A DNA stretch of 64,000 nucleotides, from contig NZ_JAQNDL010000001.1 in NCBI RefSeq assembly GCF_028368995.1, positions 416,001 through 480,000 of the forward strand, in the 5' to 3' direction. Positions 1 through 53,459 of this stretch are shown here, piece by piece (the first letter of the stretch is position 1; each line of letters begins with the position of its first letter). Origin of the DNA: Nannocystis bainbridge. Lineage in GTDB: Bacteria; Myxococcota_A; Polyangia; Nannocystales; Nannocystaceae. The position numbers were made by a program, and so were the translations under genes. The notes beneath the pieces are model-generated. The model was not told where the DNA came from. It searched no databases and saw only the letters and a program-made list of their open reading frames with translations.

Positions 1-1295
1 GCCTTGTCCTTGTTGGTGCGCCAGATGACGAGCTTGCGGACCGCCTGCTGGCCCTTCGCGCTCTTGGCGTAGACCTCGCGGCGGATCACCTCGGAGGCCG
101 GCAGGACCAGGCGCTCGGCCTTCTTGTTGAGGCTGTCGATCTGGACCCGCTCGAGCACCTGGGCCACGCGGATGTCGACCGGGTTGACGGTCTTGTCGCT
201 GCGGATGCGCGAGAACACCGGGTGGAGGATCGACACGCCGGGCATCTCCCGGATCGTGCGCCAGCCGGTCTGCGAGTGCTCGAGCACCATGCGGAGGATC
301 GGGTCGCCGCTCGAGTCCTCGCCCTGGATGTCGGTGACCTTGACCTCGATCACCGTCTCCGGTGGGACGAACCGGTACAGCGCGCCCTTGCTGTTGGCGT
401 AGCGGTAGTTCGACGCCACGGCCTTGCCGGACATCTGCTGGTAGAACGACTTGCGCTGCTCGGTCGGCATGTTGCCGCAGGCGCCGATGACCTGGAACTG
501 GCCGTCGTCGCGCATCATCGCCAGCAGCAGCGAGCCGACCGCCTCGGGCTCGTCCGAGCTGTCGGTGTAGCCGATGATCGCCGCGTCGATGTCGATCGTC
601 GGCTTGAGCTTGAAGACCAGGTTGTCGGCGGTGCGGACCACCAGGCCCTCGCCCTTGCCGCCCTCGACCCACTCGTTCCAGCGCTGCATGATCTGCTCGG
701 CGCCGGTCGCAGCCTCGGTCTTGATCGCCTGCAGCCGCTTGCCGCCGGCCAGCAGCCGCTGGCACAGCGCCAGGCGGTCGACGTACAGCGGCGGCCGCTG
801 CGGCGCCTCGGCGTCGCCGCCGTGCAGCACGTCGAACGCGAAGTACGCCATGCGCTCGACCTGCGCCTGCGCCTCGCCGCCCATCGCCGACCCGAGGTCG
901 CCGACGCGCGGCCGGCCCTGGCCCGGCGCCTTGGCGGCGAACAGCTCGCCCGCCAGCACCGTGCGGCCCTGCTTGCGCCCGAGCGCCGCCTTGGCCTCGA
1001 GCAGCACCGGCACGTCGCCCGAGACCACGCGGCCGGTCGGCGAGCACAGGATCGCCTGCTGCTCGTCGAGCACCAGGAACCACAGCTCGCCGTCGACCTT
1101 CGGCGACACCTGCAGCACGCCCGGCGGGACCGACCCGCGGGCCAGGTCCTCGAAGGGCAGCGCGCGGTAGCTGCCGGCCACGGCGCGCTTGTAGTTGCGG
1201 AACATGGCCGCCAGCTCGGTATCGAGCAGGCTGCCGGCCGGGCTCTGCTTGCCCTTGCCGAGCGGACGGGCGCTGTCGGTGGAGAACAGGCTCAT
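1..1295 (-). CDS. ATP-dependent DNA ligase-like protein (runs off the left window edge)
   Basis: Not in the ORF track; translated by hand from ATG at 1295 (GGAG upstream). Motifs: SPKVDGE (I, KxDG), LAGELF (III), YFAFDVL (IIIa), EGLVVR (IV), FKLKP (V), OB-fold IDAAIIGY and VIEVK, HPVFSRIRSDK (VI), then an additional C-terminal region. Confidence 0.85.
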   Translation of the reverse strand, partial: MSLFSTDSARPLGKGKQSPAGSLLDTELAAMFRNYKRAVAGSYRALPFEDLARGSVPPGVLQVSPKVDGELWFLVLDEQQAILCSPTGRVVSGDVPVLLEAKAALGRKQGRTVLAGELFAAKAPGQGRPRVGDLGSAMGGEAQAQVERMAYFAFDVLHGGDAEAPQRPPLYVDRLALCQRLLAGGKRLQAIKTEAATGAEQIMQRWNEWVEGGKGEGLVVRTADNLVFKLKPTIDIDAAIIGYTDSSDEPEAVGSLLLAMMRDDGQFQVIGACGNMPTEQRKSFYQQMSGKAVASNYRYANSKGALYRFVPPETVIEVKVTDIQGEDSSGDPILRMVLEHSQTGWRTIREMPGVSILHPVFSRIRSDKTVNPVDIRVAQVLERVQIDSLNKKAERLVLPASEVIRREVYAKSAKGQQAVRKLVIWRTNKDK

Positions 1296-1320
1296 GAAAA
1301 TCTCCGGTCTGTCCGAAAGG

Positions 1321-2025
1321 TCAGGTGGCCGGCGCGCCCGGGGCGCGCAGCTCGAGGTTCGAGAGGTGGAGCAGCAGCTTGTACTTCTGGCCGTCGACGC
1401 GGCCCTCGAGGAAGCCGCGGTACGGCGTGCCGTTCTCCTGGAAGATCAGCGGATCGCGGCCCTTGCCGCCGGCGCCGAGCAGCGCCATCTCGCCCTTGTC
1501 GTGCAGCTCCTTCGCCATCTTGAACAGGAAGTCGAACGACAGGCCGTCGACGTGCTTGATCTGGATGGTGCGGCGGAACGCGAACTTGGTGACCACCTCG
1601 GCCTTGGGCAGCCGCCGCGGGGTGAACCGCACCGGCGACTCCTTCTCGTTGGTGTTGGCCGGGATGTCGGCCGCCGGCTTGCGCTCGCGCTCGGCCCCGT
1701 CGGGCCCGAACAGCACGTCGACCAGCCTCGGCGAGGCGTGCAGCACCTCGCCCTTGCTCGACAGGAACACGGTCTGCGTGTCGCCGACGACCTTGCCGAC
1801 CTGCTCGATGTCGATCTCGGGGTCGCCGTCGATGAGCGCCTGCGCCAGGTCGCCCGGCAGCGCGCTGAGCTTGCCGAAAGTGCCGGCCTCGGTGGTCGCC
1901 AGGTAGCGGCGGAACTCGAGCTTCTTGCCGGGCACGCCGGACACCGGCCCGACCTTCTCCTTGACCGACTCGAGCGCGAGCGTGGCGTCGCGCTTCTCCT
2001 CGTTCATCAGCTGGATCTTGCGCAT
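1321..2025 (-). CDS. Hypothetical protein, possibly divergent Ku-like beta-barrel
   Basis: Start MRKIQL at 2025 with GGGAG upstream; globular composition; lies between the ligase and the 2048-2650 gene. The Ku resemblance is weak and inferred. Confidence 0.7.
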   Translation of the reverse strand: MRKIQLMNEEKRDATLALESVKEKVGPVSGVPGKKLEFRRYLATTEAGTFGKLSALPGDLAQALIDGDPEIDIEQVGKVVGDTQTVFLSSKGEVLHASPRLVDVLFGPDGAERERKPAADIPANTNEKESPVRFTPRRLPKAEVVTKFAFRRTIQIKHVDGLSFDFLFKMAKELHDKGEMALLGAGGKGRDPLIFQENGTPYRGFLEGRVDGQKYKLLLHLSNLELRAPGAPAT

Positions 2026-2047
2026 GGCTGTCTCCCTGACCTGTCCC

Positions 2048-2650
2048 TCAGAACATCTCGAAGTCGAGCTCGTCACCGTCGTCGTCGCCGCCCGGATCGT
2101 CGGCCACGGTGGTCTGCAGCTCGCACCACTCGCTCACCGCCGGCGAGCCCACCAGCGCGAAGTAGGCCCCGCCGTTGCACACGAGGTAGGCCAGCTCGGT
2201 GTCGTAGCCGCCGCGGTAGCTGAACACGAAGCGGAACACCTTGCCGCCGCGCAGCTCACCCTCGAGCTTGGGGTCGAGCCCGTTCGGGTCGAGCGTGTAG
2301 ACCGAGCGCACCGCGAGGTCGAGCAGCTCGCCCGGATCGATCGGGCCCTCGAGCTTCTGCGCCTCGCCGAGCGTGCTCGGGATGTGCGGCAGCGGCTTGC
2401 CGTCGCCGTCGAGGCCGACCAGCTTGCCGTTCGGGATCCACGCGTTGCCCTCGTCGAAGTAGCCCTGCGCGGTCATGCCCGAGCGGATCAGCAGCGTGCC
2501 GTCGCGCGACAGCTCGGCCCGCTCGCAGCGCTGCTCGTGAGGGTCGAGGATCTGGCGCTGACGCTTGCCGTACAGCTTGGCGCGGTCGAGCTTCTCGTGA
2601 TCGAAGGTCGACTGCACGCCGCCCCAGTTGACGATGATCGGTTTCGCCAT
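2048..2650 (-). CDS. Ku-like protein with acidic C-terminal tail
   Basis: MAKPII start; IDPGELLDLAVRSVYTLDP and KVFRFVFSYRGG..AYLV resemble Ku core segments (IDPxY..xYYLxP; FVLRG.E.L); ends DDDGDELDFEMF. Confidence 0.65.
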   Translation of the reverse strand: MAKPIIVNWGGVQSTFDHEKLDRAKLYGKRQRQILDPHEQRCERAELSRDGTLLIRSGMTAQGYFDEGNAWIPNGKLVGLDGDGKPLPHIPSTLGEAQKLEGPIDPGELLDLAVRSVYTLDPNGLDPKLEGELRGGKVFRFVFSYRGGYDTELAYLVCNGGAYFALVGSPAVSEWCELQTTVADDPGGDDDGDELDFEMF

Positions 2651-3074
2651 AAGTGCGAGGGCCCAAGCGGCCGCCAAGCCTTATCCGACCGGCCGCGCAG
2701 CCCTGTCAAGCCGAGCGTTCTGCCAGCGCGAACTCGCGCTGCGCACTACTGCCCATCGACATCGCGACAGCGGCCCGCTGCACCGCGGATCCGCATCCTT
2801 GTACGCGCAATCGAGCGAGACCCTGCCAGCGCCGTCACGTTCTGATCTCGAGCAGATCATGAACCGGCCGCGCCGATCTCCTTCGAGCCCCCGGTCGGTC
2901 GACCGCGAAGGCTCCACGGACTCGTCAGCTCGAGCGTGCAATCACCTGTCCCGAGGGACAGCACGACCCTCGGCTCGGATGCCGTCGAAGCCTCGCGAAC
3001 CTTCGACCGTGAGCAGAGCGACCGCGCCCTGGTCGGGGCCCGCGATCGCGCGTAGGGTCGCCGGCAAGAACCTT

Positions 3075-3713
3075 ATGCGTCGATCCCTTCATGCATACCT
3101 GTCCGTGACTCTGACGCTGTTCGCCTGCGGCCCCGCCAAGCAGAGCGACAGCGACACCACCACCGGCCCCACGAGCACCTCCACGACCTCGTCGTCCGGC
3201 ACCGCGAGCACCACCTCCTCCTCCTCGACGTCGCCCACCACGACCGGCGAACCGCTCACCACTTCCTCCTCCGGGACCTCCGACACCGAGGCAGCGACGG
3301 ACAGCGGCACCCCCTCGAGCTCCGAGCCCACCGGCACCGAGGTCACGAGCACCACCGGAGCGCCGGCGGGTGATTGCAGCGATCAAACGAACCTGGATGA
3401 CTGCCACGCCATCCCCGGCCCGGGCGGCCACTCGGACTGCGTGTGGGTCGAGACCGTCGCGCAGTGGAGCCCGGACACCGGCTGCGAAGTCGTCGCCGGG
3501 CCGGCGCACTGCGTCCAGGGCTTCTACGTCGGCGATGGCTGCTTCGGCAGCGGCTGCCCCGATCTCGAGCGCGTGTACGTCCGCGATCAAGGCGACGGCA
3601 ACTTCGACGTCGTGAACCACCCCGGCGGCTCCTGCGGCGTCGAGCCCGACGGCTGGGAGCAATGCAGCACCGAGTTCCCCGAGCTGCCAGAGGCTTGCGG
3701 CTGCGTCTGCTGA
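3075..3713 (+). CDS. Lipoprotein with Thr/Ser stalk and Cys-rich C-terminal domain
   Basis: MRRSLH...LFAC lipobox, low-complexity T/S linker, Cys-rich domain ending CGCVC. Confidence 0.8.
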   Translation: MRRSLHAYLSVTLTLFACGPAKQSDSDTTTGPTSTSTTSSSGTASTTSSSSTSPTTTGEPLTTSSSGTSDTEAATDSGTPSSSEPTGTEVTSTTGAPAGDCSDQTNLDDCHAIPGPGGHSDCVWVETVAQWSPDTGCEVVAGPAHCVQGFYVGDGCFGSGCPDLERVYVRDQGDGNFDVVNHPGGSCGVEPDGWEQCSTEFPELPEACGCVC

Positions 3714-3758
3714 CACTGCCCTGGCGCTCTCGAGGCTCTCTTGCGCTACGCTCGAACC

Positions 3759-4091
3759 ATGCCTGGCGACGCTCCCGACATCCACGTCATCCTCATGACC
3801 TGTCCTCCCGACCAGGCCGAGAAGATCCTCCTCGCGCTGCTCGAGCGGCGCCTCGTCGGCTGCGGCAACATCCTCCCGCAGGTCCGCTCGCGCTACTGGT
3901 GGGACGGCCAGATCTGCAGCGACGACGAGGCCCTCGTCGTCATGGAGACCACCCCCGATCGCCTCGACGCCCTCTACGCCGCGATCCCCGACGTTCACCC
4001 TTACTCCGTCCCCAAGGTCGTCGCGCTCCAGCCGAGCGCCTGCGGCGAGCCTTACCTGCAGTGGCTGCGCGCTGTCACGCGGCCGGGCTGA
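3759..4091 (+). CDS. cutA: Divalent-cation tolerance protein CutA
   Basis: LLERRLVGCGNILPQVRSRYWWDG, HPYSVP and YLQWL are CutA signatures. Confidence 0.92.
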   Translation: MPGDAPDIHVILMTCPPDQAEKILLALLERRLVGCGNILPQVRSRYWWDGQICSDDEALVVMETTPDRLDALYAAIPDVHPYSVPKVVALQPSACGEPYLQWLRAVTRPG

Positions 4092-4095
4092 AGCC

Positions 4096-4527
4096 ATGGT
4101 CGTGCTGTTCACCATCCTCGGCGTCCTCGCCGATCTGCTGATCCAGATGTTCACCCTGCTGGGGACCGGGGCCGTCGTCGCGAGCGTCGTCCGCGGCTTC
4201 TCGGCCGAGGATGGCGTGCTCCTCCTCCTGTTCCTCGCCGCCACCATCGGCGGCCACTGGATCCTCCTCCGGCGGATCCGCGCCGGACGGCGCACCGTCG
4301 CCACCGCGCGGGCCGGCAGCGAGGAGGTCGGCACGCGCACCGCCGGGCACTTCGTCACCGACGCGCTGCTCATCCTCTGCCTCGCGGCGATGCTCCGCAC
4401 CATGCAGGAGCCGCCCTGGGAGACTGCCGAGCGCGCCGGAACGATCGCCATGCTCGTCGCCTGCATCGTGCTCTGCGGCCTGCGCGTCGCCTTCGTGCGT
4501 CGGGACCCGGATCCCGACCTGATGTGA
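4096..4527 (+). CDS. Small membrane protein (about 4 TM)
   Basis: Four hydrophobic stretches; starts 4 nt after the cutA stop. Confidence 0.65.
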   Translation: MVVLFTILGVLADLLIQMFTLLGTGAVVASVVRGFSAEDGVLLLLFLAATIGGHWILLRRIRAGRRTVATARAGSEEVGTRTAGHFVTDALLILCLAAMLRTMQEPPWETAERAGTIAMLVACIVLCGLRVAFVRRDPDPDLM

Positions 4528-4723
4528 GGAGGCAGCAGTTCCAGAGCTTGAGGCCGTTGCTCGCCAGCATTCGGCGCGCGCAGGCAACGAGCCAGCGATC
4601 CACTCATCGCGGGGTCGCCGTTCCGACCCGGCCTTTCGTGTCGCTGCGATGCGACGCGCCGGAGCGCTGACGGTCCGCAGCGCCCGGTCGCTCGCGTGCG
4701 AGGCCGCTACGAGCCCGCCGCTC

Positions 4724-7168
4724 TCACCTGCCCGCGCGCGCCAACTTGCGCGCGCAGGCTACCAGCGCCAGGTAGCAGCCTGCCCCGATCGCCATCGTCG
4801 TCGAGATGCCCCACGTCATGGATGTCCCGAGGGCCAGGCCGCTCGCGCACACTCCGAACGCCCCGTTGATGCCCCACAGCCACGGCGTCACCGCGTGACC
4901 GCCTGCCCTTTCGACCAGGCGCAGCCCCAGCGGGAAGCAGATGCCCATCCCCACCGCGGGCGGCGCGATGAGGGCGATCGACAGCAGCACGCGGATCGTC
5001 GTCTCGGCGCCGGCGAAGTTCTCCGTCACCGGGCCGGTCGCCAGCCGGGCCGCCACCACCATCAGCGCCGGGATCAGCGGGAACAGCCACGCCACGGCCC
5101 CTCCGCGCTCGACCGCCAGCTTGCCGCTGAGCAGGCTACCGATGCCCGCCGACAGGATGATGCCGCCGAGCACCACCGCCAGCGACAGCGTCGGGTGGCC
5201 GACGAACACCCCCACCTGGGACAGCAGCGCGATCTCGACGAACATGAAGCCGAGGCCGATCAGCGCGAAGTAGGCCAGCGCCGCCGCCAGCGTCGCCGGG
5301 GCCAGCCCCGTCGTCGGCTCGCTCGCTCGGCTCACCTCGGTCTGCGCCGGCCGGGCCACCAGCGGCCCGAGCAGCGCCGCCAGCGTCAGCAGCAGGCTCA
5401 CCAGCGTCGCGTACACCAGCGTCTGCGTCGCCTGCAGGTTGCCGAGGAACCCGAGATCGAGCTCGCTGAGCTCCTCCTGGCCTTCGAGCCAGGTGCCCGG
5501 CTTCAGCATGTTGAAGAAGAACGGCCGGTCGTCGGTCGGCGGCGTCAGGTCGAGCGTCTGGCGCTCGGCCCACTGCCACAGCGTCGCCCGGTCTTCGATC
5601 GCCCCCAGCTCCGCCAGCAGCGGCTGGGCTGGCAGGCGACGCGGCGTCAGCACCATGTTGACGCCGATCCGGACCGCCTCGCGCTGCATCAGGTCGAGGT
5701 CGTCCGCGGTGAACGGCGTCGGCGAGACCAGCAGCGTCGCCACGCTCTCGACCTGCAGCAGCAGCAGGTGCGCGCGCGGCTTCTCGACCCCGAGCTGCCA
5801 CAGCGCCTCCATCGCCAGCGCCACCATGCGCGCCGTCTCGCCGGGCGACTCCTTCTTGTACCAGCGCGACACCGTGAACACCCCCGTGGGTGCCAGGCGG
5901 CGCAGGAACACCAGCCAGCCCTCGACCGTGTACAGCCCGTTCTCCGACAGGCTGTACGCGCCGGCGCCGGTCGAGGCCCACGTGTCGATCAGCGACATCG
6001 TGATCACCTCGTACTGCCGGTCGTCGCGCGAGAAGAAGCTGCGCGCCTCGTCGGTGTGCAGCTCGACGCCCGGGCGCGCCGCGATGGTCGAGAAGTCCGC
6101 CATCGACCGCCGGTGCAGGTCGACGATCGCCGCGTTGAGCTCGACCCCGACCACCGGCGCGTGGCCGCTGCGCAGCGCCGCCAGCACGTCGCGACCGCCG
6201 CCGACCCCGATCACCGCCGCTGGCCCGTGCGGGCGCAGGCGGTGGGCGAACGTGCTGAGGTCCCAGTCGAGGTACGCGTGATCCGAACCTGCCCCTTCGG
6301 CCATCAGCGTCGCCGCCGCGCCGTCGATCTTCAGCACTCGCTGCTGGATCGGCGCCCGCGCCTCGAGCGGCATGTTGCGCCCCGGCGCCCACAGGTACGG
6401 CGGCAGCGCGATCTGGGTCCCGACCGTCACCCGCGAGTGCGTGTTCCAGGCCACGTGCATGAACTCGCGCGGGTCCTCGCGCACCCCCTTGACCCACGCC
6501 GGGCGCAGCGGCGGCGCCTCGGCGGCCGCGTTGAAGCCGGCGAACCCCAGCAGCGCCAGCGTCAGCGCGCCACATGTCCCGAGGGACCTGCGCTTTTCGC
6601 CAGGGTCTTCGTCACATGTCGCAAAGGCCAGGGCGCCGAGCGCCGCGATCGCCCCGACCACCAGCACCGCGCTGGCGGCGTCGACCACGTCGAGCAGCGG
6701 GATCACCAGCCCGCAGCCGGCCGCCGCGCCGAGCAGGTCGCAGCCGTAGGCGCGGCCCGGAGGCAGCCCGGCGCGCGTCAGCGCCAGCGTCAGCGCCACC
6801 CCGGCGGCCGCGAACGGGACCGCCAGGGCCGCGCCGAAGCCGAGCAGGGCGAAGAAGCCCATCAGGTCGATGACCGGCAGCAGCGGCCCCGACATCGTCC
6901 ACGCGACCGCCAGCGGGGCCAGCGCGGCGAACAGCGCCGAGCTGCGGGCCAGCCGGCGCATCACCGTCGCCTGGGTGAACCGGGCCGGGCGCATGAACAC
7001 GTAGATCGAGCCCGCGGTCATGCCGAGCATCGCCAGCGCGATGACGAAGAACGACAGGTGGTACCACGCGATCACGCTGGTGATGCGGGTCAGCAAGATC
7101 TCGAGCGCGAGCGTCGAGCCCGCGACCAGGGCGATCCCGGCGTAGAGGAAGAACGAGCGCATCGGCAT
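4724..7168 (-). CDS. Membrane protein with central spermidine-synthase-like SAM-dependent domain
   Basis: True start MPMRSFF at 7168 (TGATG overlap with the acylase stop); multi-TM N- and C-termini; VIGVGGGRDV, VGVELN, DEARSF, LYTVEG and PTDDRPFF motifs. Confidence 0.85.
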   Translation of the reverse strand: MPMRSFFLYAGIALVAGSTLALEILLTRITSVIAWYHLSFFVIALAMLGMTAGSIYVFMRPARFTQATVMRRLARSSALFAALAPLAVAWTMSGPLLPVIDLMGFFALLGFGAALAVPFAAAGVALTLALTRAGLPPGRAYGCDLLGAAAGCGLVIPLLDVVDAASAVLVVGAIAALGALAFATCDEDPGEKRRSLGTCGALTLALLGFAGFNAAAEAPPLRPAWVKGVREDPREFMHVAWNTHSRVTVGTQIALPPYLWAPGRNMPLEARAPIQQRVLKIDGAAATLMAEGAGSDHAYLDWDLSTFAHRLRPHGPAAVIGVGGGRDVLAALRSGHAPVVGVELNAAIVDLHRRSMADFSTIAARPGVELHTDEARSFFSRDDRQYEVITMSLIDTWASTGAGAYSLSENGLYTVEGWLVFLRRLAPTGVFTVSRWYKKESPGETARMVALAMEALWQLGVEKPRAHLLLLQVESVATLLVSPTPFTADDLDLMQREAVRIGVNMVLTPRRLPAQPLLAELGAIEDRATLWQWAERQTLDLTPPTDDRPFFFNMLKPGTWLEGQEELSELDLGFLGNLQATQTLVYATLVSLLLTLAALLGPLVARPAQTEVSRASEPTTGLAPATLAAALAYFALIGLGFMFVEIALLSQVGVFVGHPTLSLAVVLGGIILSAGIGSLLSGKLAVERGGAVAWLFPLIPALMVVAARLATGPVTENFAGAETTIRVLLSIALIAPPAVGMGICFPLGLRLVERAGGHAVTPWLWGINGAFGVCASGLALGTSMTWGISTTMAIGAGCYLALVACARKLARAGR

Positions 7169-9621
7169 CACCTGCCCTCGACCACGGTCTCGTGCAGGTT
7201 GGGGTCGGCGGCGATGTCGGCCTCGCGGAACAGCAGCGGTCGCCATTGCTTCTGCGAGAACAGCTCGGTCTGGTCGCGGAAGTGGGGCGAGCGCGGGTCC
7301 TCCGACTGCGAGTACGTCAAGAACGCCTCGCCGCGCGGCCCGTCGGGCAGCATCTCGACCGCCATCACGAACGACGAGCCGTAGTTGATCACGTAGCCGC
7401 GCTCCGTAAGGCCGGCGGTGCCGTCGATCGCCGGCGGGCGCCCGACCTTCGGCAGCAGCGTCGAGTTGAGGCCGCCGTTGTAGCCGACCACGTTGGCGAT
7501 GCCCTCCTTGGCGAACCCGCCGTGGACCCCGATCTCGACGCTGCCGCGCGGCGCTCGCTGCAGCTGCTTGAGCGGGGCCGACAGCGGCACCCCGGCGGTC
7601 CGCAGGTTGACCACCGCCTCGCCGAGCGCCACCAGGGCCCCGTCGACCTGGCCCGCGGCCGGGGCGATCAGCGTGTGCGGGGTGTGGACCGGGTCGTCGA
7701 CGTCGAACGGCACGTTGAACAGCGAGCCGCGGTCGAGCACCGAGTCGGGGCCATAGGCCGCCAGGTACTCGCGGAACAGCACCGCGCCGACGCTGTCGGG
7801 GTCGAAGCGGCGGTCCCACGCGCCGAGCAGCTGGCAGATCGTGCGCAGGTCGACGACGCTGCCGGCGACCTCGATCACGTGTTGCGCGTCGCAGCGGGCC
7901 AGCAAGGCGTCCAGCACCAGCTCCGCGGTCAGCGAGTGGTTGCCCTGGATCGCCGCCTGGATCTCCGCCAGCGAGAACGTGCCGTCCTCGCCGGCCGCCA
8001 CGAACGGCGCCTCGTTCTGCAGCAGCATCGCGTTGACGCGCGTGCGCGGCGACTGCGGCGCGCGCTCCGCCCCGTGCAGCGGCGAGAAGCCCTCGAGCGG
8101 CGCCGCCGGGTTGGCCAGCCAGTACGAGTCGTTGGCGTTGAGCACGAAGTCGCGGCGGCCCAGCTGCGGCATCGCCGAGAACGGCACCAGCCCCGGCGCG
8201 CGCGCGTCCCCGCTGTCCTGCCACTCGTAGCTGGAGTCGCTGCCGTCGAGCACCACCAGGCCGCCCTGCTGGTACAGCAGCCCGGTGAGGAAATCGCTCT
8301 CGATCGCCGCCTGCCAGCCGGCGATCGCCGCCTCGGTGATCTGCCCGGTCGCCGAGGCGTCGGCGTACCACGCGTCGCCGTGCTTGTCGGCCGCCATCGT
8401 GTTGACCCACGGGATGCCCTGCACCGTCTTGAACACCTGCTTGAACCCGTCGAGGCTGGTCGCGCGGTCCATGCCGAGGAACTGCTCGATGAGCCGCGGG
8501 TTGTCGATGTTGGCGTCGCGGTAGGTCAGCGCGAGGTCGCCGGACCAGCCGATCGGGTCGACGTTGAGCATCGGCCCGTAATGGCTGTACCACATCGTGC
8601 GCGACACCTTGCCCTCGCCTGCGACCTCGGCCTCGAAGGTCTTGGCGGTCATCGGCCGCGAGGCACCGTCGTACAGGTAGGCCGTCGGATCGTCCGGGTC
8701 GAGCGTCAACTTGTAGAACGTGAAGCGCGTGCCCGACGAGAACGTGTGCGTCCACGCGACCTCGTCGTTGAAGCCGATCAGCACCCCGGGCACGCCCATC
8801 AGGCCGACGCCGTAGATGTTGAGCTGCCCCGGCACCGTCACGTGGCTCTCCCACAGCTTGAGCTCGCCGGTCCACGGGAAGTGCGGGTTGGCCACGACCA
8901 TGCCGCCGCCGCTGGTCGTCTTCTCGGCGCCGAGGGCCCAGCCGTTGCTGCCGAAGCCGCCGCTCGTCAGCGTGCCGAGGCCCGCGAGCGGCCCGCCCGG
9001 CAGCTGCAGCGGCGACCCCGGCGGCTGGGCCGTGCCGATGTAGCCCGCCAGCTGATTGCTGCTGCCGAGCAGCCCGAGGTCGACGTAATAACGGGCCAGG
9101 TCGAGCGCGTCGATCTCCTTGACCCACGGCGCCCCGGCGCAGTCGGCCGGCAGCTGCCCCGGCGGCGTATCGCGCAGGTACTGGTTGTAGCCGGCCGCGT
9201 AGCCCTCGATCGCCGTCTTGACCTCGGCAGGCGCCGCGTCCCACATCCGCTGCGCCCGCGGCCCGACCTCGAGCGCGAGGTAGGCGAAGTCGCTGGTCAG
9301 GAACGCGTCGCCGCTGCCGCGCCCGAAGTACTTGGCGCGCTCCGAGCGGACCTTGACGATCTGATCGGCCAGCGTGCACACGTGGTCCTGCGCGAACGCG
9401 TAGGCCTGGCCGAACAGCGCGCTGCCGAGATCGTCGGCCTGGATGTGGGCGATGCCGAAGCTGGTGCGCCGGATCGTCGCTCGATAGGCCGGCTCGCCGG
9501 AGGTCTCGCTCGTGCTCCCGTCACCTGTCGAGCTCGCTCCGTCCGTCTCAGTGTGGGGGGCGTCGGTCGAACCGCAGGCGAACAGCGGGGCGAGCGCGAG
9601 GACGGCGAACTTGCGCAACAT
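7168..9621 (-). CDS. Penicillin acylase family (Ntn hydrolase, PvdQ/QuiP-like AHL acylase) lipoprotein
   Basis: LFAC lipobox; IRRTSFGIAHI, GSNGWALG (catalytic Ser), ANPHFPW, PWVNTMAAD, TYSQS and DQTELFS. Confidence 0.92.
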   Translation of the reverse strand: MLRKFAVLALAPLFACGSTDAPHTETDGASSTGDGSTSETSGEPAYRATIRRTSFGIAHIQADDLGSALFGQAYAFAQDHVCTLADQIVKVRSERAKYFGRGSGDAFLTSDFAYLALEVGPRAQRMWDAAPAEVKTAIEGYAAGYNQYLRDTPPGQLPADCAGAPWVKEIDALDLARYYVDLGLLGSSNQLAGYIGTAQPPGSPLQLPGGPLAGLGTLTSGGFGSNGWALGAEKTTSGGGMVVANPHFPWTGELKLWESHVTVPGQLNIYGVGLMGVPGVLIGFNDEVAWTHTFSSGTRFTFYKLTLDPDDPTAYLYDGASRPMTAKTFEAEVAGEGKVSRTMWYSHYGPMLNVDPIGWSGDLALTYRDANIDNPRLIEQFLGMDRATSLDGFKQVFKTVQGIPWVNTMAADKHGDAWYADASATGQITEAAIAGWQAAIESDFLTGLLYQQGGLVVLDGSDSSYEWQDSGDARAPGLVPFSAMPQLGRRDFVLNANDSYWLANPAAPLEGFSPLHGAERAPQSPRTRVNAMLLQNEAPFVAAGEDGTFSLAEIQAAIQGNHSLTAELVLDALLARCDAQHVIEVAGSVVDLRTICQLLGAWDRRFDPDSVGAVLFREYLAAYGPDSVLDRGSLFNVPFDVDDPVHTPHTLIAPAAGQVDGALVALGEAVVNLRTAGVPLSAPLKQLQRAPRGSVEIGVHGGFAKEGIANVVGYNGGLNSTLLPKVGRPPAIDGTAGLTERGYVINYGSSFVMAVEMLPDGPRGEAFLTYSQSEDPRSPHFRDQTELFSQKQWRPLLFREADIAADPNLHETVVEGR

Positions 9622-31131: not shown

Positions 31132-34100
31132 TCACGGGGTGAGCCGCGCGACCTGGGCGCGTAGCCACGCCTGCAATTCGGCCGGGCTCCGCGGCACCAG
31201 GCCGAGGGCGAAGCGATGGACTTCGCCGTCCTCGCGGGCCACCAGCTCGCCGTCCGGGCCGAGCTGCAGCAGCCGCGCGAAGCCCTTGGTGGTCCACATC
31301 GGCGTGGCCGTCATGCTCTCGAGCTCCCAGACCTGCATCGTGTCGCCGACGGCGCCGAACAGGAGCTCGCCGCCCGGGTCGAATTGCATCGACCAGATGT
31401 TGCCGCCCGCGTCGATCGATCGCACCGCCGCGGTCGCGGCGTCGACGAGGAACAGCCGCTCTCCGTCGCTGACGGCGATCCGCTGGCCGTCGTGGGAGAC
31501 CCGCAGTCCGAAGTAACCCTCGGCGCGCAGGCCCAGGGCGACGTCGAGGGGGCGGGTGGTGCGAGCCACCAGGTCGTGCACGACCAGCCTCCCGCTGCCG
31601 AGCTCGAGCGCCACCAGCCAGCGTCCGTCGCCGGACATGTCCATGTTCAGGTTCACCTTCGGGCTCACGGGCGCCATCACCTGCGTGAGGGCGCCGTCAG
31701 CGAAGACTTGCACGCCGCCGGTCGACGACAGCGACGCCAGCCGCGCGCCGCCGGGGTCGTACATGAGGGTCCGCCACCCGCCGTCCCCGCCCTCGAAGCT
31801 GCGCGGGCTGGTGTCCGGATCGGACCACGCGTACACCGTGCCGTCGACGGCGATGGCCGCGAAGCCGCGACCGTCGGGGGCGAGGAAGACCCGCAGCACC
31901 GGCTCGACCACCCCCGCGATCGCGCGCGGCTGATCGCTGCCGGCGGCGTACAGATCGAGCTTGCCGCCGTGCGACACGAGCGCGCGGCCGGTCTCGTCGA
32001 CGACGATCGACACCCCGCCCTCGCCCGCCGTCAGGCACGGCGCCAGCGGCTGGCTCGTGCCGGCTCGCGTGTCGATCCGCGTCAGCGCGCCGGTCGGCTT
32101 GTGGTGGCGGATCAGGAACTTCGCCGCCGGCGAGTGCAGGGTCGAGGTGTTCGCCAGCCCGCGGCGCAGATCCACGATCGTGTGCGCAGCGTCCCGCGGC
32201 TCCCACACGTCGATCGCCGGGCCGCGGCGGGCGAGGTAGCGCCCCGCGTGATCGAGCTGGCCATAATCGTAGTCGGCGGGGGCATGAAAGCGGCGCAGCA
32301 CGGCGCCGGTCGCCAGCTCGCCGAGATCGAGCGGGCGGCGAACCTGCTGCTGGGCCGCGCTCTCCACCGCGTAGCCCTCGCCGCCGACCAGCACGCGATC
32401 GTCGCCCTGGACCAGCGGCCGCCGCCACGCGCACTCCGCCGCGAGCGGCTGCGTGGCGCACAGGACCAGCCCATCGCTGCTGCGCTGGACCAGCCCGACG
32501 AGCGACCCGAGGCCGCGGATCATGCCGACGTCGCCGCGCCACTCGTGCGCCGTCGCGCGGGCGAGGTCCCACGCGATCGCCCGCGCCTCGCCGTCGCGCG
32601 TGCTGGTCCCGTACAGAAACTGGCCGTCGGACGAGACCCCGAGGAAATGGTCGAGGCCGCCGTGAGCCGTGACCGTGCGGGCCTCACCAGTCGTGCGGTC
32701 CCAGATGCTGACGGTGTCGGCCCCGAATTTTCCGCGGGCGAGGAAGCGGGCGTCCGGGGTCACCAGCGCGCGGTTCTGCGGGTCGCTGGCCGGCGCCGGC
32801 GGGAACGCGTCGGCGATCTCGCGGCCGGTGCGGAGATCCCAGGCGGTGGCCGGCAAGGGGCGGACCAGCCACGCCTCGTCGGTGGTGATCATCAGGCGAT
32901 CGATCGCCGACGCCCGGCGGTCGTCGTGCCACGCCGTCCGCCACTGCTGCCATTCGCCCGCGAACGCGTGGGCGCCGATCAGCGCGTCGGCGTGCGCGGC
33001 GACCCAGGCCTGCCCGCTCGGCGCGACCACCAGCGGGGCAGCCGGCGCGCCGAGGCGGGCGATCCGCTGGCCCTGGTCGCGCTCGTCGCCCCAGCGCCAC
33101 ATATCGCCGGCGCCGTCCTGGGCGAAGATCCACGGGCTCTGCGCCGCCGGCAGGACCGTGAGCACCTCGGCCTCCGGGCCGCGCAGCACCCGGTCCGGCA
33201 GGCCGCGCGACAGCGCCGCGAGGGCCAGCGTGCGCGCCTCGAGGGCCTCGCGTGGGTCGAGCGCTTCGAGCTCGGCGAGGGCCTGCAGCGTCGCCAGGGG
33301 CGCCTCGGCCAGCGATCCACGGGCGTGGGCCAGCGCGCTCGCGTGCGCCTGCCGGGTCGCCTCGGCGCGGGCGATCGCCACCTCGCGGTCGAGCTCCGCG
33401 CGCTCCTCGGCGTCGGCGCGACGCACCTGCTCGCCGGCCCACCACGCCCCTCCGGTGAGCAGGCCCGCGGCCACCATGCTCACGCTGGTCCAGCGCCGGC
33501 GGGTCCGCCACCGGGCCGCCGGGTCGCCGGCGAGCGCGGCCAGCAGCGCGTTCATGGTCGGCCAGCGGCGCTCGGGGTCGGACTGCAGCCCGCGGAGCAG
33601 CGCCGCGTGGACCCACGCCGGCACCGCGGCCGACTTCGGCGGCGGCGACACGCGCCCGGAGCTGACCGCGTCGGTGAGCTCCGCGAGGGTCTCGCCCGCG
33701 AACGGTCGGTGGCCGTAGAGCGCCTCGTAGAGGGCGATACAGAAGCTGAACTGGTCGGTGCGCGCGTCGCCCCGCTTGGCCGCGAATTGCTCGGGGGCCA
33801 TGTACGCCGGCGTGCCGAGCACCGCGCCGGTGCTGGTCAGACTGCGCGATGGCTCGCGTCCGCCCGCCGGCTCGGTCGATTCACCGGCCTCCTCGGAGCC
33901 CTCGAATTGGGCCAGGCCGAAATCGAGGACGCGGACCCGGCCGTCGGCCCCGAAGATCGCGTTGTGCGGCTTGAAGTCGCGATGGACCACGCCCTGCGCG
34001 TGGGCGGCGGCCAGGCCCTCGCCCGCCTGGCGAAACACCGCGAGGACCTGCGGCCACGGGCGCCGCTCGCCGTCCAGCCAGGCCCGCAGCGTCGGCCCGG

Positions 34101-34563
34101 CCAGGAACTCCATGGCCACGAAGATCCGCTGGTCGGCCAGCTCGCCGACCTCGTACACGTGGACCACGTGGGGGTGAGACAGCCGCGCCAGCGCCCGCGC
34201 CTCCCGCAGGATGCGCGAGGCCCCGCTGGCGCTGCCGTGGAGCTTCGGGCGGATCAACTTGAGCGCCAACTTGCGGTCGAGGCGATCGTCGTACGCCGCG
34301 TAGACGATGCCCATGCCGCCGGCGCCGACGCGGTTCAGCAGGCGATAGCGCCCGAGCTGCACCGCCTCCGGTTCGGCCCCGAAGATGGCGGCCGCCACGG
34401 CCCGCTTGGCGTGCAGGTGCTCCGGCGCGGCCAGCACGTCCGGTCGTATGCCCGGGGACAGCAGGGTCTCGTGCGTCAGCGACGCCGCGGCTGTGGAGCC
34501 GCTGGGGTGCGTGGCGTCGACGTCTTCGATCTTGATCACGTGTTCGGCGAGAGAGTGGGTCAT
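31132..34563 (-). CDS. Ser/Thr protein kinase with TM segment and WD40/beta-propeller C-terminus
   Basis: GAGGMGIVY, LALK, HRDFKPHN, DFGLA, GTPAYMAPEQ; beta-strand-rich repeats downstream. Confidence 0.92.
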   Translation of the reverse strand: MTHSLAEHVIKIEDVDATHPSGSTAAASLTHETLLSPGIRPDVLAAPEHLHAKRAVAAAIFGAEPEAVQLGRYRLLNRVGAGGMGIVYAAYDDRLDRKLALKLIRPKLHGSASGASRILREARALARLSHPHVVHVYEVGELADQRIFVAMEFLAGPTLRAWLDGERRPWPQVLAVFRQAGEGLAAAHAQGVVHRDFKPHNAIFGADGRVRVLDFGLAQFEGSEEAGESTEPAGGREPSRSLTSTGAVLGTPAYMAPEQFAAKRGDARTDQFSFCIALYEALYGHRPFAGETLAELTDAVSSGRVSPPPKSAAVPAWVHAALLRGLQSDPERRWPTMNALLAALAGDPAARWRTRRRWTSVSMVAAGLLTGGAWWAGEQVRRADAEERAELDREVAIARAEATRQAHASALAHARGSLAEAPLATLQALAELEALDPREALEARTLALAALSRGLPDRVLRGPEAEVLTVLPAAQSPWIFAQDGAGDMWRWGDERDQGQRIARLGAPAAPLVVAPSGQAWVAAHADALIGAHAFAGEWQQWRTAWHDDRRASAIDRLMITTDEAWLVRPLPATAWDLRTGREIADAFPPAPASDPQNRALVTPDARFLARGKFGADTVSIWDRTTGEARTVTAHGGLDHFLGVSSDGQFLYGTSTRDGEARAIAWDLARATAHEWRGDVGMIRGLGSLVGLVQRSSDGLVLCATQPLAAECAWRRPLVQGDDRVLVGGEGYAVESAAQQQVRRPLDLGELATGAVLRRFHAPADYDYGQLDHAGRYLARRGPAIDVWEPRDAAHTIVDLRRGLANTSTLHSPAAKFLIRHHKPTGALTRIDTRAGTSQPLAPCLTAGEGGVSIVVDETGRALVSHGGKLDLYAAGSDQPRAIAGVVEPVLRVFLAPDGRGFAAIAVDGTVYAWSDPDTSPRSFEGGDGGWRTLMYDPGGARLASLSSTGGVQVFADGALTQVMAPVSPKVNLNMDMSGDGRWLVALELGSGRLVVHDLVARTTRPLDVALGLRAEGYFGLRVSHDGQRIAVSDGERLFLVDAATAAVRSIDAGGNIWSMQFDPGGELLFGAVGDTMQVWELESMTATPMWTTKGFARLLQLGPDGELVAREDGEVHRFALGLVPRSPAELQAWLRAQVARLTP

Positions 34564-41065: not shown

Positions 41066-41542
41066 TCACTCGGCCGCGTCTTCCTGGGCGGTCCGCTCGA
41101 GATCCTGGACGAAGGAGTCGCGCTCGCGCTCGTACTCCTCGGCCAGCTTCTCGGCCTCGCGGTCGCTCACGACCTGGCGCGCCAGCGGGAACATCTCGCC
41201 CTCCTCCTCGTCGACGTGGTGCCCGACCATGTCGGCGAGCACCTTGATCTTCGGCGTCCAGGCCTCGTGGTCGGGGCCGATCGCGTCGATCTCGGCGATC
41301 AGGTGATCGACCTGCTTGTGCTCCTCGATGCCTTCTCGGGTCTCGTCCTCGGTGTTGGACTCGTCGAGCAGCCGCGGATAGAGGACGGCCTCCTCCGCCC
41401 GCGCGTGCGGCACCAGCTTGATCTTGAGCCGGGTGAACAGCTCCAGAGCTTTGGCGCCCTTGGCCTCCTCGAGCTCGTGGAACAGCTCGCTGACCTCTTC
41501 GTGCTCGCGATGCAAGATGTCGTAGATCTGGGGCTTTGGCAT
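41066..41542 (-). CDS. Hemerythrin (HHE) domain protein
   Basis: LHREH, HARAEEAVLYP, EEH, HHVDEEEGEMFP; AGGAGG RBS. Confidence 0.9.
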   Translation of the reverse strand: MPKPQIYDILHREHEEVSELFHELEEAKGAKALELFTRLKIKLVPHARAEEAVLYPRLLDESNTEDETREGIEEHKQVDHLIAEIDAIGPDHEAWTPKIKVLADMVGHHVDEEEGEMFPLARQVVSDREAEKLAEEYERERDSFVQDLERTAQEDAAE

Positions 41543-41794
41543 GACGCATTCCTCCTGGCGCGGGGACCCGCCGGGGCGGGCCAGCGACCGTGAAAGATGT
41601 GGCGCGAAAACGAGGTGCGGCAAATCGGCCGACGCCGTCGGCCGCCGGCCGGGCGCCAATGCTGGCAAGAGCGGCAGGACAGGCGATTCTGCGTACAGAG
41701 CGCCGCGGCCCCGGGCTGCCAGCCTGAGCCGTGGGCTCGTGCTCGATGAGATCTGTCCCCACCCTCGCCGCGCGGCTCGGGGCGCCTTTTGTCA

Positions 41795-41818
41795 TGACAT
41801 GTCCCCGAGGACATGTGG
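41795..41818. repeat. GGACATGTCC-like pair, 14-bp period
   Basis: CATG cores at 41798 and 41812. Confidence 0.65.
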
Positions 41819-42116
41819 ACATCGACCACCGGACCCACATCACCCTCCCGGCCGCCCCGCCGGGGCTGCGTTCACCCGCGCGTCGGCGCGCCCTCGTCCG
41901 CGGCGTATCGTCGGCGCCGCTGTGTGCACCATCGAGATCGGCGCCGGGAATGGCCACATGACCCGACCTCGACTTCGCTGTGCGACCGTGCGCGGGCCCC
42001 ATCAACCCGAGCGGAACACGGTTCAACATCGGGGCTCGCGCGCGCCGACCTGCGCCTGCAGGGCGGCCCGGGCCCGCGGGCCTCGTGTTAGTCTCGGAGG
42101 CTCGCTCGGGGTGCTG

Positions 42117-43619
42117 ATGGACAGCTTCGAAGCCAGGGCGTCCGCCGACCTCGGACCCCATGTCCCCCAGGACATGTCCGTCGGGACATTGATCGCCGGC
42201 CGCTACCGGATCCTCGCCGGCCTCGGCGAGGGCGGCATGGGTGCGGTGTACCTGGCCGAGCACCTCGAGGTCGGCCATCGCGTCGCGGTCAAGGTGCTGC
42301 ACGCCGAGCCGAGCGCGCGGGCCTCGATCGCCCGCCGCTTCCGCGTCGACGCCTGCAGGGCCGGCTCGCTCGGGGACCCGCACATCGTCGAGGTGTTCGA
42401 CGCCGGCGTGCTGCTGGACGGGCGCCTGTTCCTGGTGATGGCCTACCTCGAGGGCCGCGACCTGGCGCAGGAGCTCGAGGAGGTGCTGGTCTTCGACGCC
42501 GAGCGCGCGTGCTCGCTGATGCGGCAGGTCACGCTGGGCCTGGCGACCGCCCACGCGGCGGGCATCGTGCACTGCGCGCTCAAGCCGAGCAGCGTGATGC
42601 TGGCGGCGCTGCCCGAGGGCGAGGTCGTCAAGCTGCTCGACTTCGGGCTCGCGGCCAAGGTGGTGCTGCACGCCGGCGCGGGCGAGCACCCGTCGCACGA
42701 GGCCGGCGCCCACTCGAGCTCGGCCGATTACATGGCGCCCGAGCAGGCCGCGAGCGTCGCGGCGACCCCGGCCGTGGATGTCTACGCCGTCGGGGTGATG
42801 CTCTACGAGCTGCTGTCAGGCTCGCTGCCGTTCACCGCCCGCCACGCGTTCGAGCTGCTGAATTTCAAGCTGCTGCACGCGGCGCCGTCGATCGACGCCC
42901 GCCGCCCCGGCCTGCCGCCGCGGCTCGTGCGGCTGATCGCCGACTGCCTCAGCATCGACCCCGCGGCCCGCCCCGCCGACGGCGCGGCGCTGGTGCCCCG
43001 CCTCGACGCGGTGCTCGCCGACCTGCGGAACCCGGCGCCGCGGCCCGCCGAGGGCGCGACCGCGCCGCAGCCCGCGGTCCGGCGCCGGCGATGGCCGCTC
43101 GCGCTGGCGGCCGGCCTGTTGCTGACGGCCGGCGTGGCGTCGGTGGAGCTCGCGCCGGAGCCCGCGGCCGCGATCGAGCCGCCGCCACCCGCGCCGACGC
43201 CCGCAGCGCCGGCGCCGACGATCGAGCCGCCGCCGCCCGCCCTGCCCGCGCCGACGGTCGTCCCGCTCGCGCCCCCGCAGCCCGCCCTCGAGCTGCCGCG
43301 AACCGAGCCGGGCCCGAAGGTCGCCCGCCGGCCCGCGCCCACGACCGACACCGACGCCGACGAGACGCACCTGAGCCCTCGCTGTCAGCGCATCCGGGCC
43401 AAGGCGACCGAGGCGCGCCGGACCCAGCGCTGGGGCGTGCTGCGCGACCAGAGCCGCCACCACGAGTGCTGGGCCTCCGAGCCCGAGGTCCGCAAGCTGC
43501 AGGCCAAGGCGGCGATGGAGCTGGGCGACTTCTCCGGCTGCGTGACCTTCGGCGCCGGCCTGCGCGACCCGGAGGTCGAGCAGTGGCTCAAGCTGTGCCG
43601 CCTGCGCGCGGAGGATTGA
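42117..43619 (+). CDS. Ser/Thr pseudokinase with TM helix and Pro-rich/Cys extracellular region
   Basis: GEGGMGAVY, VAVK, DFG and YMAPEQ retained, but the catalytic loop reads HCALKPSS instead of HRDLKPxN. Confidence 0.85.
   Translation: MDSFEARASADLGPHVPQDMSVGTLIAGRYRILAGLGEGGMGAVYLAEHLEVGHRVAVKVLHAEPSARASIARRFRVDACRAGSLGDPHIVEVFDAGVLLDGRLFLVMAYLEGRDLAQELEEVLVFDAERACSLMRQVTLGLATAHAAGIVHCALKPSSVMLAALPEGEVVKLLDFGLAAKVVLHAGAGEHPSHEAGAHSSSADYMAPEQAASVAATPAVDVYAVGVMLYELLSGSLPFTARHAFELLNFKLLHAAPSIDARRPGLPPRLVRLIADCLSIDPAARPADGAALVPRLDAVLADLRNPAPRPAEGATAPQPAVRRRRWPLALAAGLLLTAGVASVELAPEPAAAIEPPPPAPTPAAPAPTIEPPPPALPAPTVVPLAPPQPALELPRTEPGPKVARRPAPTTDTDADETHLSPRCQRIRAKATEARRTQRWGVLRDQSRHHECWASEPEVRKLQAKAAMELGDFSGCVTFGAGLRDPEVEQWLKLCRLRAED
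42156..42193. repeat. GGACATGTCC-like array, 3 units, at the 5' end of the pseudokinase gene
   Basis: Cores at 42159, 42173, 42187. Confidence 0.75.
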
Positions 43620-47484: not shown

Positions 47485-50541
<3,057 letters not shown>

Positions 50542-50799
50542 CCGCGCCGGAGGATAGTGCACGCCCGCCGCCGCCGTCGAGGCCGGCGATCCCCGTCTCG
50601 CCCGACCCCGCGCGCCACCTCGCTCCCTGCCGGGCCCCCCGGCGCGCGAATCGAGCGATCGCCACGCTGCGACGAATCCCCTGTCGGCGAATGACAGCGC
50701 CCTCTCTCCTCCATGCATTCGCCACGCCTCTCATTGTCACCACCCTGCGCGACGATGTCGCCCTTGCCACGACCTCCGTCGCCGCCTGACCGGGCGAAG

Positions 50800-51601: not shown

Positions 51602-51944
51602 GCCTCGCGGCCCGCCAGCGGGGGCGCGTCGCGGTCACGGCGATGCGTCCCTCGCTCGCGTCCGCGCGGCCGACGACGCGTGGATGAATCGATCGTTCTT
51701 GCTGCCGGAATTATCGTCGCCCCGCGCCTGCAGGCCAGCGCCCACCTCACCCACGGCCGCGGAACGTGGGGCATTTCCCGCCTCGGCACGTGAGGATCCC
51801 GGTTCGCTTGCCAGCGCGATGCCCGCGAACGCATGCCGCCACGCGGGACGTCCGCTCACTGTCGAGGACGTGCAGCGTGACGAAGAACCGGGGTTGCTCG
51901 CGTTGCCGAACGCATCATACAGCGAGTACCACCCGCTTGGTCGT

Positions 51945-53455: not shown

Positions 53456-53459
<4 letters not shown>
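51945..53459 (+). CDS. KaiC-like tandem RecA-superfamily ATPase
   Basis: TGISGLDDILGGGLP, GAPGSGKT, VVFDSL, KLRG; second domain SSGNRGLDSLLGGG, GPAGAGKT, FDES, VIDSL, KSR..H..TIREF. Confidence 0.92.

Follow-up and report, generated by a model that had tools for sequence, protein, structure and literature searches.

A candidate three-gene, heterodimeric Ku-plus-ligase operon for DNA end joining in Nannocystis bainbridge

Can a bacterium rejoin broken DNA with proteins that neither the Ku nor the LigD sequence profile would detect? Bacterial NHEJ, or non-homologous end joining, is taught as a two-part system, composed of a Ku homodimer and LigD, and surveys score species by those two profiles. 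The question is raised by three co-oriented, head-to-tail genes on the minus strand, at the left end of a 64,000-nucleotide stretch of Nannocystis bainbridge DNA (contig NZ_JAQNDL010000001.1, positions 416,001 to 480,000; the whole stretch is referred to as the window). Gene A (2048..2650, ATG at 2650, stop at 2050–2048) encodes a 200-residue protein with an acidic C-terminal tail, and gene B (1321..2025, ATG at 2025, stop at 1323–1321) a protein of 234 residues; both are predicted here to be Ku-like subunits. The third gene (1..1295, ATG at 1295) encodes an ATP-dependent DNA ligase and is cut by the window edge, such that 431 of about 487 residues are visible. We propose, with a probability of roughly 0.6, that the trio is a self-contained, non-canonical DNA end-joining operon in which A and B form a heterodimeric Ku-type ring that works with its own ligase.

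Predicted fold and pairing of A and B

Neither A nor B has a match in Pfam, NCBIfam or PADLOC at E ≤ 1, and when used as single sequences in phmmer they retrieve nothing among the PDB sequences. The two proteins also do not resemble each other: alignment with hhalign returns a probability of 1.4%, i.e., no relationship at the sequence level. Structure models were generated with AlphaFold2 (AF2) from alignments of 50 sequences for A and 30 sequences for B. The predicted local distance difference test score (pLDDT) is 81.2 for A and 63.5 for B, where residues ~26–108 are poorly defined in the monomer. When the A model is compared with the PDB using Foldseek, all five matches at E ≤ 1e-3 are bacterial Ku proteins, with Ku of B. 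subtilis (9vnq_A, 9.9e-5) and of M. tuberculosis (9i91 and 9ig8) at the head of the list. Ku80 chains and the Ku-like INTS13/14 follow. The B model has 38 matches at the same threshold, and all among the matches listed are Ku chains (best 8v53_B, 4.5e-5). In the viral structure library BFVD, only two entries match the A model at E < 0.01, both of them Ku proteins: one is a "Ku-homolog" from an uncultured phage (2.3e-4), the other the Ku protein encoded by Mycobacterium phage Dylan (1.5e-3). With an E of 0.27, the third match is noise, and the steep drop in E-value after the two Ku proteins is useful as a control of specificity. Judged from these models, A and B very probably adopt a Ku-type β-barrel fold, and are predicted to be highly diverged members of the Ku-fold proteins.

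An intertwined dimer is a hallmark of Ku membership, and such a dimer is also what complex prediction returns for A and B. The score for the pair is 0.73 (individual runs 0.75, 0.73, and 0.73) vs. 0.00 for the best of three controls. In calibration, 116 of 157 solved complexes attained this mark, as did 2 of 215 mismatched pairs; the counts hold only roughly here because our own alignments were fed to the A:B prediction. The runs agree in at least 83% of the contacts, with a partner pLDDT of at least 68. The predicted interface is very large (~300–350 contacts) and is made of segments that are disordered in the monomers (A residues 21–87 and B residues 17–110), as in an intertwined ring; the middle third of B, poorly modelled alone, is better modelled in the complex. 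Seven of the nine invariant A residues outside the tail are situated in the predicted interface (Arg23, Tyr27, Arg32, Gly58, Met59, Gln62, and Trp175), and the tightest contacts are predicted between A Trp175 and B Tyr215, and between A Tyr64/Phe65 and B Phe38. On the basis of the predicted complex, we consider an A:B heterodimer probable.

The original prediction for this locus described two dissimilar, Ku-core-like proteins that would pair in a heterodimeric ring. The dissimilarity is borne out by the hhalign comparison, the Ku-like core by the retrieval of Ku as top PDB match for both AF2 models, and the pairing, at the level of a protein-only prediction, by the complex score. It further held that the case for Ku is stronger for A. 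This stands with respect to model confidence (pLDDT 81 vs. 63.5), but not for the Foldseek E-values, which are as good for B.

A conserved gene order with a minimal ligase

At a GC (guanine plus cytosine) content of 72%, long open reading frames (ORFs) arise cheaply, and conservation was therefore used as a test of gene reality. When one genome for each of 185,579 species was scanned, 421 stretches matched; 315 of them encode a B relative, and the best 80 of these 315 were extracted as loci, each with 8-kb flanks. Synteny in the 80 loci was assessed by tblastn of A, B and the ligase together with measurement of the gaps. The amino-acid identity of all three proteins ranges from 40 to 98% in loci whose GC content spans 34.5–74%; because they are conserved across such a range, A, B and the ligase are real genes and not chance ORFs of GC-rich DNA. 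In 79 of the 80 loci, the ligase gene directly follows B on its 3′ side in the same orientation, i.e., the genomic linkage to an ATP-dependent DNA ligase that is a feature of Ku proteins is also found here. The one exception (L073) has the ligase ~7 kb from B, on the opposite strand. Gene A lies directly 5′ of B, at most 339 nt away, in 74 loci, and the order A–B–ligase is conserved in the same number (74/80), as had been anticipated when co-occurrence of the three genes elsewhere was put forward as a check. The median gap is 14 nt between A and B, and −1 nt between B and the ligase gene, with many 4-nt overlaps at the latter junction. Short gaps and 4-nt overlaps are the signature of a co-translated operon; the corresponding spacers in the window are 22 and 25 nt.

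Among the six loci that do not have an adjacent A, three end at a contig edge (L023, L062, and L067), and in two others the gene is displaced, by 2.5 kb on the same strand (L075) or by ~4 kb and inverted (L040). At the remaining locus, L024, B and the ligase are present with no A within 8 kb, even when a six-frame profile search is used. In this locus, B forms the end of a 962-codon open frame (5832–8717), and the ligase has an aberrant, frameshift-like C-terminus; L024 could be decaying, misassembled or the site of a fusion.

Canonical bacterial Ku is a homodimer, and together with L024, where B is found without A, this raises the possibility that A and B are Ku-like but unpaired, each forming a separate homodimeric ring with its own task. 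We regard such an arrangement as very unlikely, since the two genes are adjacent in 74 of the 80 loci and often translationally coupled, and since the very large predicted interface draws on invariant residues of both proteins and improves the model of the middle third of B. A heterodimer thus remains our preferred assembly.

The ligase is 487 residues long in the Nannocystis relatives, and 471–537 residues (mostly 480–495) across all relatives. As judged from an alignment of 35 sequences, the full-length protein consists of a conserved N-terminal peptide of ~55 residues, an adenylation domain, an OB domain, and a C-terminal domain of ~92 residues. The OB domain matches Pfam DNA_ligase_A_C at 2.2e-9 (38.1 bits vs. 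a cutoff of 27.5), and the adenylation domain matches DNA_ligase_A_M close to the cutoff of 26.2 bits (window copy, 1.1e-5 and 25.6 bits; L050 copy, 34 bits). Nucleotidyltransferase motifs I, III, IIIa, IV, V, and VI are invariant or nearly so in the 35 full-length orthologues, and comprise Lys66, Glu117, Phe151/Asp155, Glu216-Gly217, Lys229/Lys231, and Arg363/Arg365/Asp367/Lys368, although the allocation of conserved residues to numbered motifs is our own reading. Lys66, the presumed active-site lysine, is found within SPK(I/V)DGE, and the last four residues constitute motif VI. The protein therefore carries the motifs of the ATP-dependent DNA ligase superfamily. Polymerase/primase and phosphoesterase domains are absent from four full-length orthologues (Pfam, E ≤ 5) and from the 35-sequence alignment, which extends to complete proteins the original description of a ligase with nucleotidyltransferase motifs and an OB fold, but no polymerase or phosphoesterase domain.

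With respect to known ligase types, the NHEJ-ligase model TIGR02779 matches at 4.5e-12 with 45.8 bits, vs. a cutoff of 227.75, which places the protein outside the LigD type, and the match to the NCBIfam LigC-like model is likewise far under its cutoff. The closest PDB sequences to the ligase profile are archaeal and eukaryotic Lig1-type enzymes (best 3rr5, 1.8e-11; human LIG1, ~1e-5), and Lig4 is matched weakly (~1e-2). No LigD-type chain is present among the 31 PDB matches at E ≤ 0.1. This relationship to Lig1, the lack of LigD-type chains, and an operon that contains no end-processing domain would also suit a different function, where A and B, much as PCNA does for Lig1-type ligases, would provide a clamp on DNA or a platform that binds lesions, so that nicks are sealed or excision repair is completed, and no double-strand ends are joined. 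We find this quite unlikely; the structural matches of A and B are with Ku, a ring that loads at ends, and not with sliding clamps, and the weak NCBIfam matches include the NHEJ-ligase model, albeit far under cutoff. Joining of double-strand ends is therefore favoured over a clamp function in what follows.

The C-terminal ~92-residue domain of the ligase is rich in lysine and arginine, conserved in the 35 orthologues, and ends in IKKGW. Its beginning (residues ~396–431) is encoded at 1..110 on the minus strand, and the remainder is located to the left of the window. The domain has no Pfam match (E ≤ 5) and no meaningful match among PDB sequences, and a search of the ESM Atlas returned unnamed clusters only. 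PDB matches to designer PPR proteins were discarded as repeat artefacts, with ~1.6 bits per domain. A WGR identity was also considered and rejected: there is no Pfam WGR match at E ≤ 5, and hhalign comparison with the WGR domain of a protein encoded next to the trio in L058 gives a probability of 2.4%, with the last helix alone being aligned.

Relatives of B show one recurrent variation in architecture. Among the 42 longer homologues (P0274–P0315, 411–2000 residues), 39 carry a lysine-rich linker followed by a C-terminal SAM domain, and two have no extra Pfam domain. P0274 has a long proline-rich stretch, and then AAKKP repeats that match the histone-H1-like HC2 model. The tails of the longer relatives, DNA-binding in style, hint at contact with DNA. 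None of the 42, inspected for Rosetta-stone fusions, joins B to the ligase or A to B. RNA binding is known for SAM domains, and for eukaryotic Ku in the case of telomerase RNA. Combined with a weak Pfam RNA_ligase match of the ligase (4.9e-4; 20.7 bits, under the 27-bit cutoff), the SAM domains could be taken to suggest an RNA system, i.e., a Ku-like RNA-binding pair with an RNA-repair ligase. This is highly improbable considering that the DNA-ligase OB-domain model scores above its cutoff, that motif VI is retained, and that no RNA-repair partners (kinase/phosphatase or Hen1) are nearby among the scanned neighbours. DNA is thus the more likely substrate of the trio.

Proposed end joining and comparison with known systems

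In the mechanism that we propose, A and B would be translated together and fold into one asymmetric, heterodimeric Ku-type ring, which would thread onto a double-strand DNA end. The acidic tail of A, ending in LDFEMF, may then bring the ligase to the ring-bound ends by way of the basic C-terminal domain of the ligase, and the enzyme, adenylated on Lys66, would seal the break. Since there is no polymerase or nuclease module, the operon would rejoin clean or compatible (cohesive) ends, or borrow end-processing enzymes of the host. The structure of the genes, their conservation and order, and the catalytic motifs are observed, and the Ku fold and the A:B interface are predicted; the ring shape, the binding of DNA ends, the recruitment of the ligase by the tail, and a role in the repair of chromosomal breaks are all features that we infer for the trio.

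The tail (residues ~185–200, encoded at 2051..2098 on the minus strand) extends beyond the barrel as an acidic run followed by the terminal peptide. LDFEMF is exact in 61 of the 72 A orthologues read, and the D-F core is retained in the other 11; Asp196 and Phe197 are invariant in the 50-sequence alignment. In the AF2 model the tail has low confidence, as for a disordered segment, and it is positioned outside the predicted A:B interface. SSB, phage T7 gp2.5 and Ku80 of eukaryotes each capture partners through a conserved acidic peptide at the C-terminus that has a terminal aromatic residue. By analogy, the tail of A may dock on the ligase, with the basic C-terminal domain as the most plausible site; this docking is the least supported step of the mechanism. 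Alternatively, the tail may fill the DNA channel of the ring until an end arrives, i.e., function as an autoregulatory rather than a recruitment peptide. In canonical bacterial NHEJ, LigD is recruited through the C-terminal arm of Ku (PMC9638933, PMC4889933).

The similarities to bacterial NHEJ of Mycobacterium and Bacillus subtilis are several. In both systems, a small Ku-fold protein of ~200–270 residues, predicted as such in the trio, where it would likewise contribute to an end-binding ring, is encoded beside an ATP-dependent ligase, and it is the Ku proteins of bacterial NHEJ (9vnq, 9i91, and 8v53) that A and B match best in structure. Unlike canonical NHEJ, the trio has two unrelated-looking subunits instead of one, and neither is detected by the Ku profile. 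Its ligase has no polymerase or phosphoesterase domain and scores far under the LigD-ligase cutoff (45.8 vs. 227.75 bits), and its putative recruiting tail is acidic (LDFEMF) and not basic. The trio can thus be expected to function like bacterial NHEJ, yet it falls outside the sequence definitions of both Ku and LigD.

As would be the case for A and B, eukaryotic Ku70/Ku80, which acts with DNA ligase IV, is an obligate heterodimer of diverged paralogues, and carries an acidic C-terminal recruitment peptide on one subunit, Ku80. Foldseek also places Ku80 chains near the top for both A and B. In some B relatives, the C-terminus is formed by a basic linker and a small helical domain, reminiscent of the linker and SAP domain in Ku70, but the appended domain is SAM, not SAP. 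A and B further lack the vWA domain and the Ku-C helical arm of Ku70/Ku80, and are one third the size. The trio does not include DNA-PKcs, XRCC4 or XLF partners, and in contrast to an enzyme of the DNA ligase IV type, its ligase matches Lig1-type sequences better than Lig4 (1e-11 vs. 1e-2). Among viral structures, A matches (E < 0.01) nothing but phage Ku homologues such as the one of Mycobacterium phage Dylan, whereas the trio, searched with B as the query, is absent from 50,697 phage records.

The nearest bacterial precedent for two Ku subunits is Ku3-Ku4 of Sinorhizobium meliloti, which is used with LigD4. The two proteins are encoded in one operon, a eukaryote-like heterodimer was proposed from genetics, and the authors noted their asymmetric C-termini (PMC6379672). 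That account regards Ku3 and Ku4 as Ku orthologues whose partners are LigD enzymes (PMC6379672), while A and B constitute a separate, unannotated pair with a minimal ligase of its own, which occurs in several phyla as opposed to alpha-proteobacteria. A 2025 survey of Ku evolution concerns recognised Ku proteins in the part of the text that is available (PMC11936186), and a 2024 structure-based survey reports INTS14 and M1AP as new human Ku paralogues, with nothing bacterial in the corresponding part (PMC11377751). No description of the trio was found in the full-text literature, a coverage that excludes subscription journals and preprint supplements. The trio therefore appears to be an unannotated, phylogenetically wide operon for a predicted Ku-like heterodimer and a minimal ligase.

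If the proposed function is correct, hundreds of lineages that are scored as lacking NHEJ may have it, and a heterodimeric Ku ring would no longer be a hallmark of eukaryotes. The operon would also offer a compact, three-protein, polymerase-free end-joining module for mechanistic study and genome engineering, and three large families of "hypothetical proteins" gain a function that can be tested. A more far-reaching interpretation, which we offer tentatively and consider rather doubtful, is that the trio is a third, self-sufficient bacterial end-joining machine, where an obligate heterodimeric ring that is unrecognisable as Ku by sequence mirrors Ku70/80 and cooperates with a Lig1-like ligase. 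The mirrored design would consist of the acidic recruitment tail on one subunit and, in some lineages, the basic linker and small helical domain on the other. It would imply that an asymmetric Ku ring arose independently in bacteria, or before eukaryotes.

Several observations weigh against an end-joining operon of the Ku type. The Pfam Ku profile (PF02735) recognises neither A nor B, and the family profiles built from 50 A and 30 B sequences fail to retrieve any Ku from 177,635 PDB sequences at E ≤ 10. Among the named clusters of the ESM Atlas, the best score of B (0.77) is to DUF2278, a match that is both sub-threshold and unrelated. In the B model, 78 residues have a pLDDT below 50. The Foldseek TM-scores of A and B against Ku amount to 0.37–0.45, with a root-mean-square deviation of 6–15 Å. 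A monomer model in which the long, ring-building arms of Ku are out of position should give a low TM-score and a large deviation, but so would a partial resemblance to Ku. Because Ku dimers are solved structures, the high score of the complex may stem from resemblance to them and not from true binding of A to B. In L024, no A accompanies B and the ligase within 8 kb, and neighbours with a role in double-strand break repair are sporadic (AddAB in 1/80 loci and a second ligase in 2/80). Finally, a TIR domain is present in three ligase relatives (P0425, P0432, and P0434) out of the 120 listed.

The TIR domain is an insert of ~120–135 residues (TIR_2 about 1e-15, ThsB_TIR about 1e-6) inside the adenylation domain, located between the motif I region and motif III, and its flanks are 45–52% identical to the Nannocystis ligase. 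This is the one observation that points towards conflict systems. In a defence system, the Ku-like ring would sense free ends of invading linear DNA from a phage or plasmid, upon which the ligase or, in some variants, an attached effector would act. An integrase fragment 5′ of the trio in L064, the long N-terminal extensions of some A relatives, and the differences in flanking genes among lineages would agree with such a role. We nevertheless consider it unlikely. Besides the rarity of the TIR insert, PADLOC-DB 2.0 has no defence-system family for any of the three proteins at E ≤ 1, and with B as the query there is no tblastn match in the 50,697 phage records or in 72,556 plasmid records, on which grounds a phage or plasmid origin was also rejected. 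The trio occupies the same chromosomal place in five Nannocystis genomes, its GC content is adapted to the hosts (34.5–74%), and its neighbours in the window and in ten examined loci are mostly ordinary metabolic and regulatory genes. The trio is thus chromosomal and old, and of the two uses that had been suggested for it, repair is favoured over anti-phage activity.

The extensions of A referred to above are found in the relatives P0239 and P0257, where ~150–190 residues without a Pfam match precede the A domain. To the eye, this region resembles the helix bundle of an integrase core-binding (SAM-like) domain. The C-termini of both proteins are unlike LDFEMF.

Distribution, surroundings and expression signals

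The loci carry the labels Myxococcota, Gammaproteobacteria, Planctomycetota, Acidobacteriota/Thermoanaerobaculia, Acidimicrobiia and Nitrosospira, among others, and the proteins from differently labelled lineages are 40–60% identical. The marine Gammaproteobacteria with the system include one Candidatus Thioglobus genome. Single taxon labels need to be treated with caution because most loci come from metagenome-assembled genomes. For example, L023, a 2.7-kb contig with 38.6% GC that carries B and the ligase, is binned as a Methanobacteriota archaeon, and its B and ligase are similar to the gammaproteobacterial copy L022; an error of binning seems more probable here than a true archaeal occurrence. 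All three families are large. Among 2769 candidates, 1255 B homologues (clusters at 90%) were found at E ≤ 1e-3, and the 120 listed relatives are 53–85% identical to B, have no precomputed Pfam domain, and are all named "hypothetical protein" where the source gives a name. The A profile, searched against 1.84 billion representatives, matches 822 clusters (50% identity) at E ≤ 1e-3, 545 at E ≤ 1e-10, and 174 at E ≤ 1e-30, and at least 809 relatives of the ligase reach E ≤ 1e-10.

To look for a fourth conserved gene, 3,238 ORFs of the 80 loci were clustered all against all, and none was found: only the trio and its antisense shadow ORFs occur in more than 14 loci. In ten lower-GC loci, 43 neighbouring ORFs were scanned. 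In L046, genes for AddB-like and AddA-like helicase-nuclease proteins (842–7329) are situated directly 5′ of A on the same strand, and in L058 a protein with BRCT, ATP-ligase, OB_2 and WGR domains (5613–7319) is encoded directly 5′ of A, so that two different ATP-dependent ligases stand side by side. RmuC is encoded three genes from the trio in L022, and an integrase fragment is located 5′ of the trio in L064; the remaining scanned neighbours are unrelated.

The arrangement of the three co-oriented genes, with gaps of 22–25 bp and ribosome-binding sites ahead of the second and third, was confirmed at the nucleotide level as originally described. Read from the sequence, the Shine-Dalgarno elements are GGGAGA for gene B (2031..2036) and GGAGA for the ligase gene (1301..1305), both on the minus strand and 5 nt 5′ of the respective ATG. 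By inspection, no obvious Shine-Dalgarno sequence precedes the ATG of gene A at 2650. This codon is nonetheless assigned as the start, in preference to the upstream TTG at 2677, because the Met1-Ala2 start is invariant in the alignment of 50 orthologues. From its position, the non-coding region 5′ of A (2651..2950, minus strand) is the expected place of the operon promoter; no sigma-70-like promoter was found in window positions 1–3800. The same interval contains two terminator-like hairpins, vs. a mean of 1.2 in shuffled sequences. One of them (1302–1318, minus strand) overlaps the ribosome-binding site of the ligase gene and could modulate its translation, but it is probably a chance occurrence because the hairpin count of the region is no higher than in the shuffles.

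The window has a GC content of 70–75%, and its first 10 kb are ~92–96% identical in DNA sequence to the chromosomes of named Nannocystis species. It encodes no canonical Ku, LigD, integrase or transposase. The neighbours of the trio are genes for a Ser/Thr-rich putative lipoprotein, CutA1, a large membrane protein and a penicillin amidase. Between the trio and cutA, the Nannocystis genomes differ by an indel of 1–4 kb (the window compared with L001–L005). In the window, this region (2651–4100) includes the Ser/Thr-rich ORF (2628–3713, plus strand), which has a lipoprotein-like LFAC motif, and in L001 an FG-GAP repeat gene takes its place. Two-component systems, Ser/Thr kinases and a KaiC-like ATPase are found farther along. 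The latter (51243–53456, plus strand) is a double-domain protein of 738 residues, encoded among hybrid histidine kinases and Ser/Thr kinases (31135–34563, 41541–43616, and 47488–50718); this region is typical myxobacterial signalling content, unrelated to the trio.

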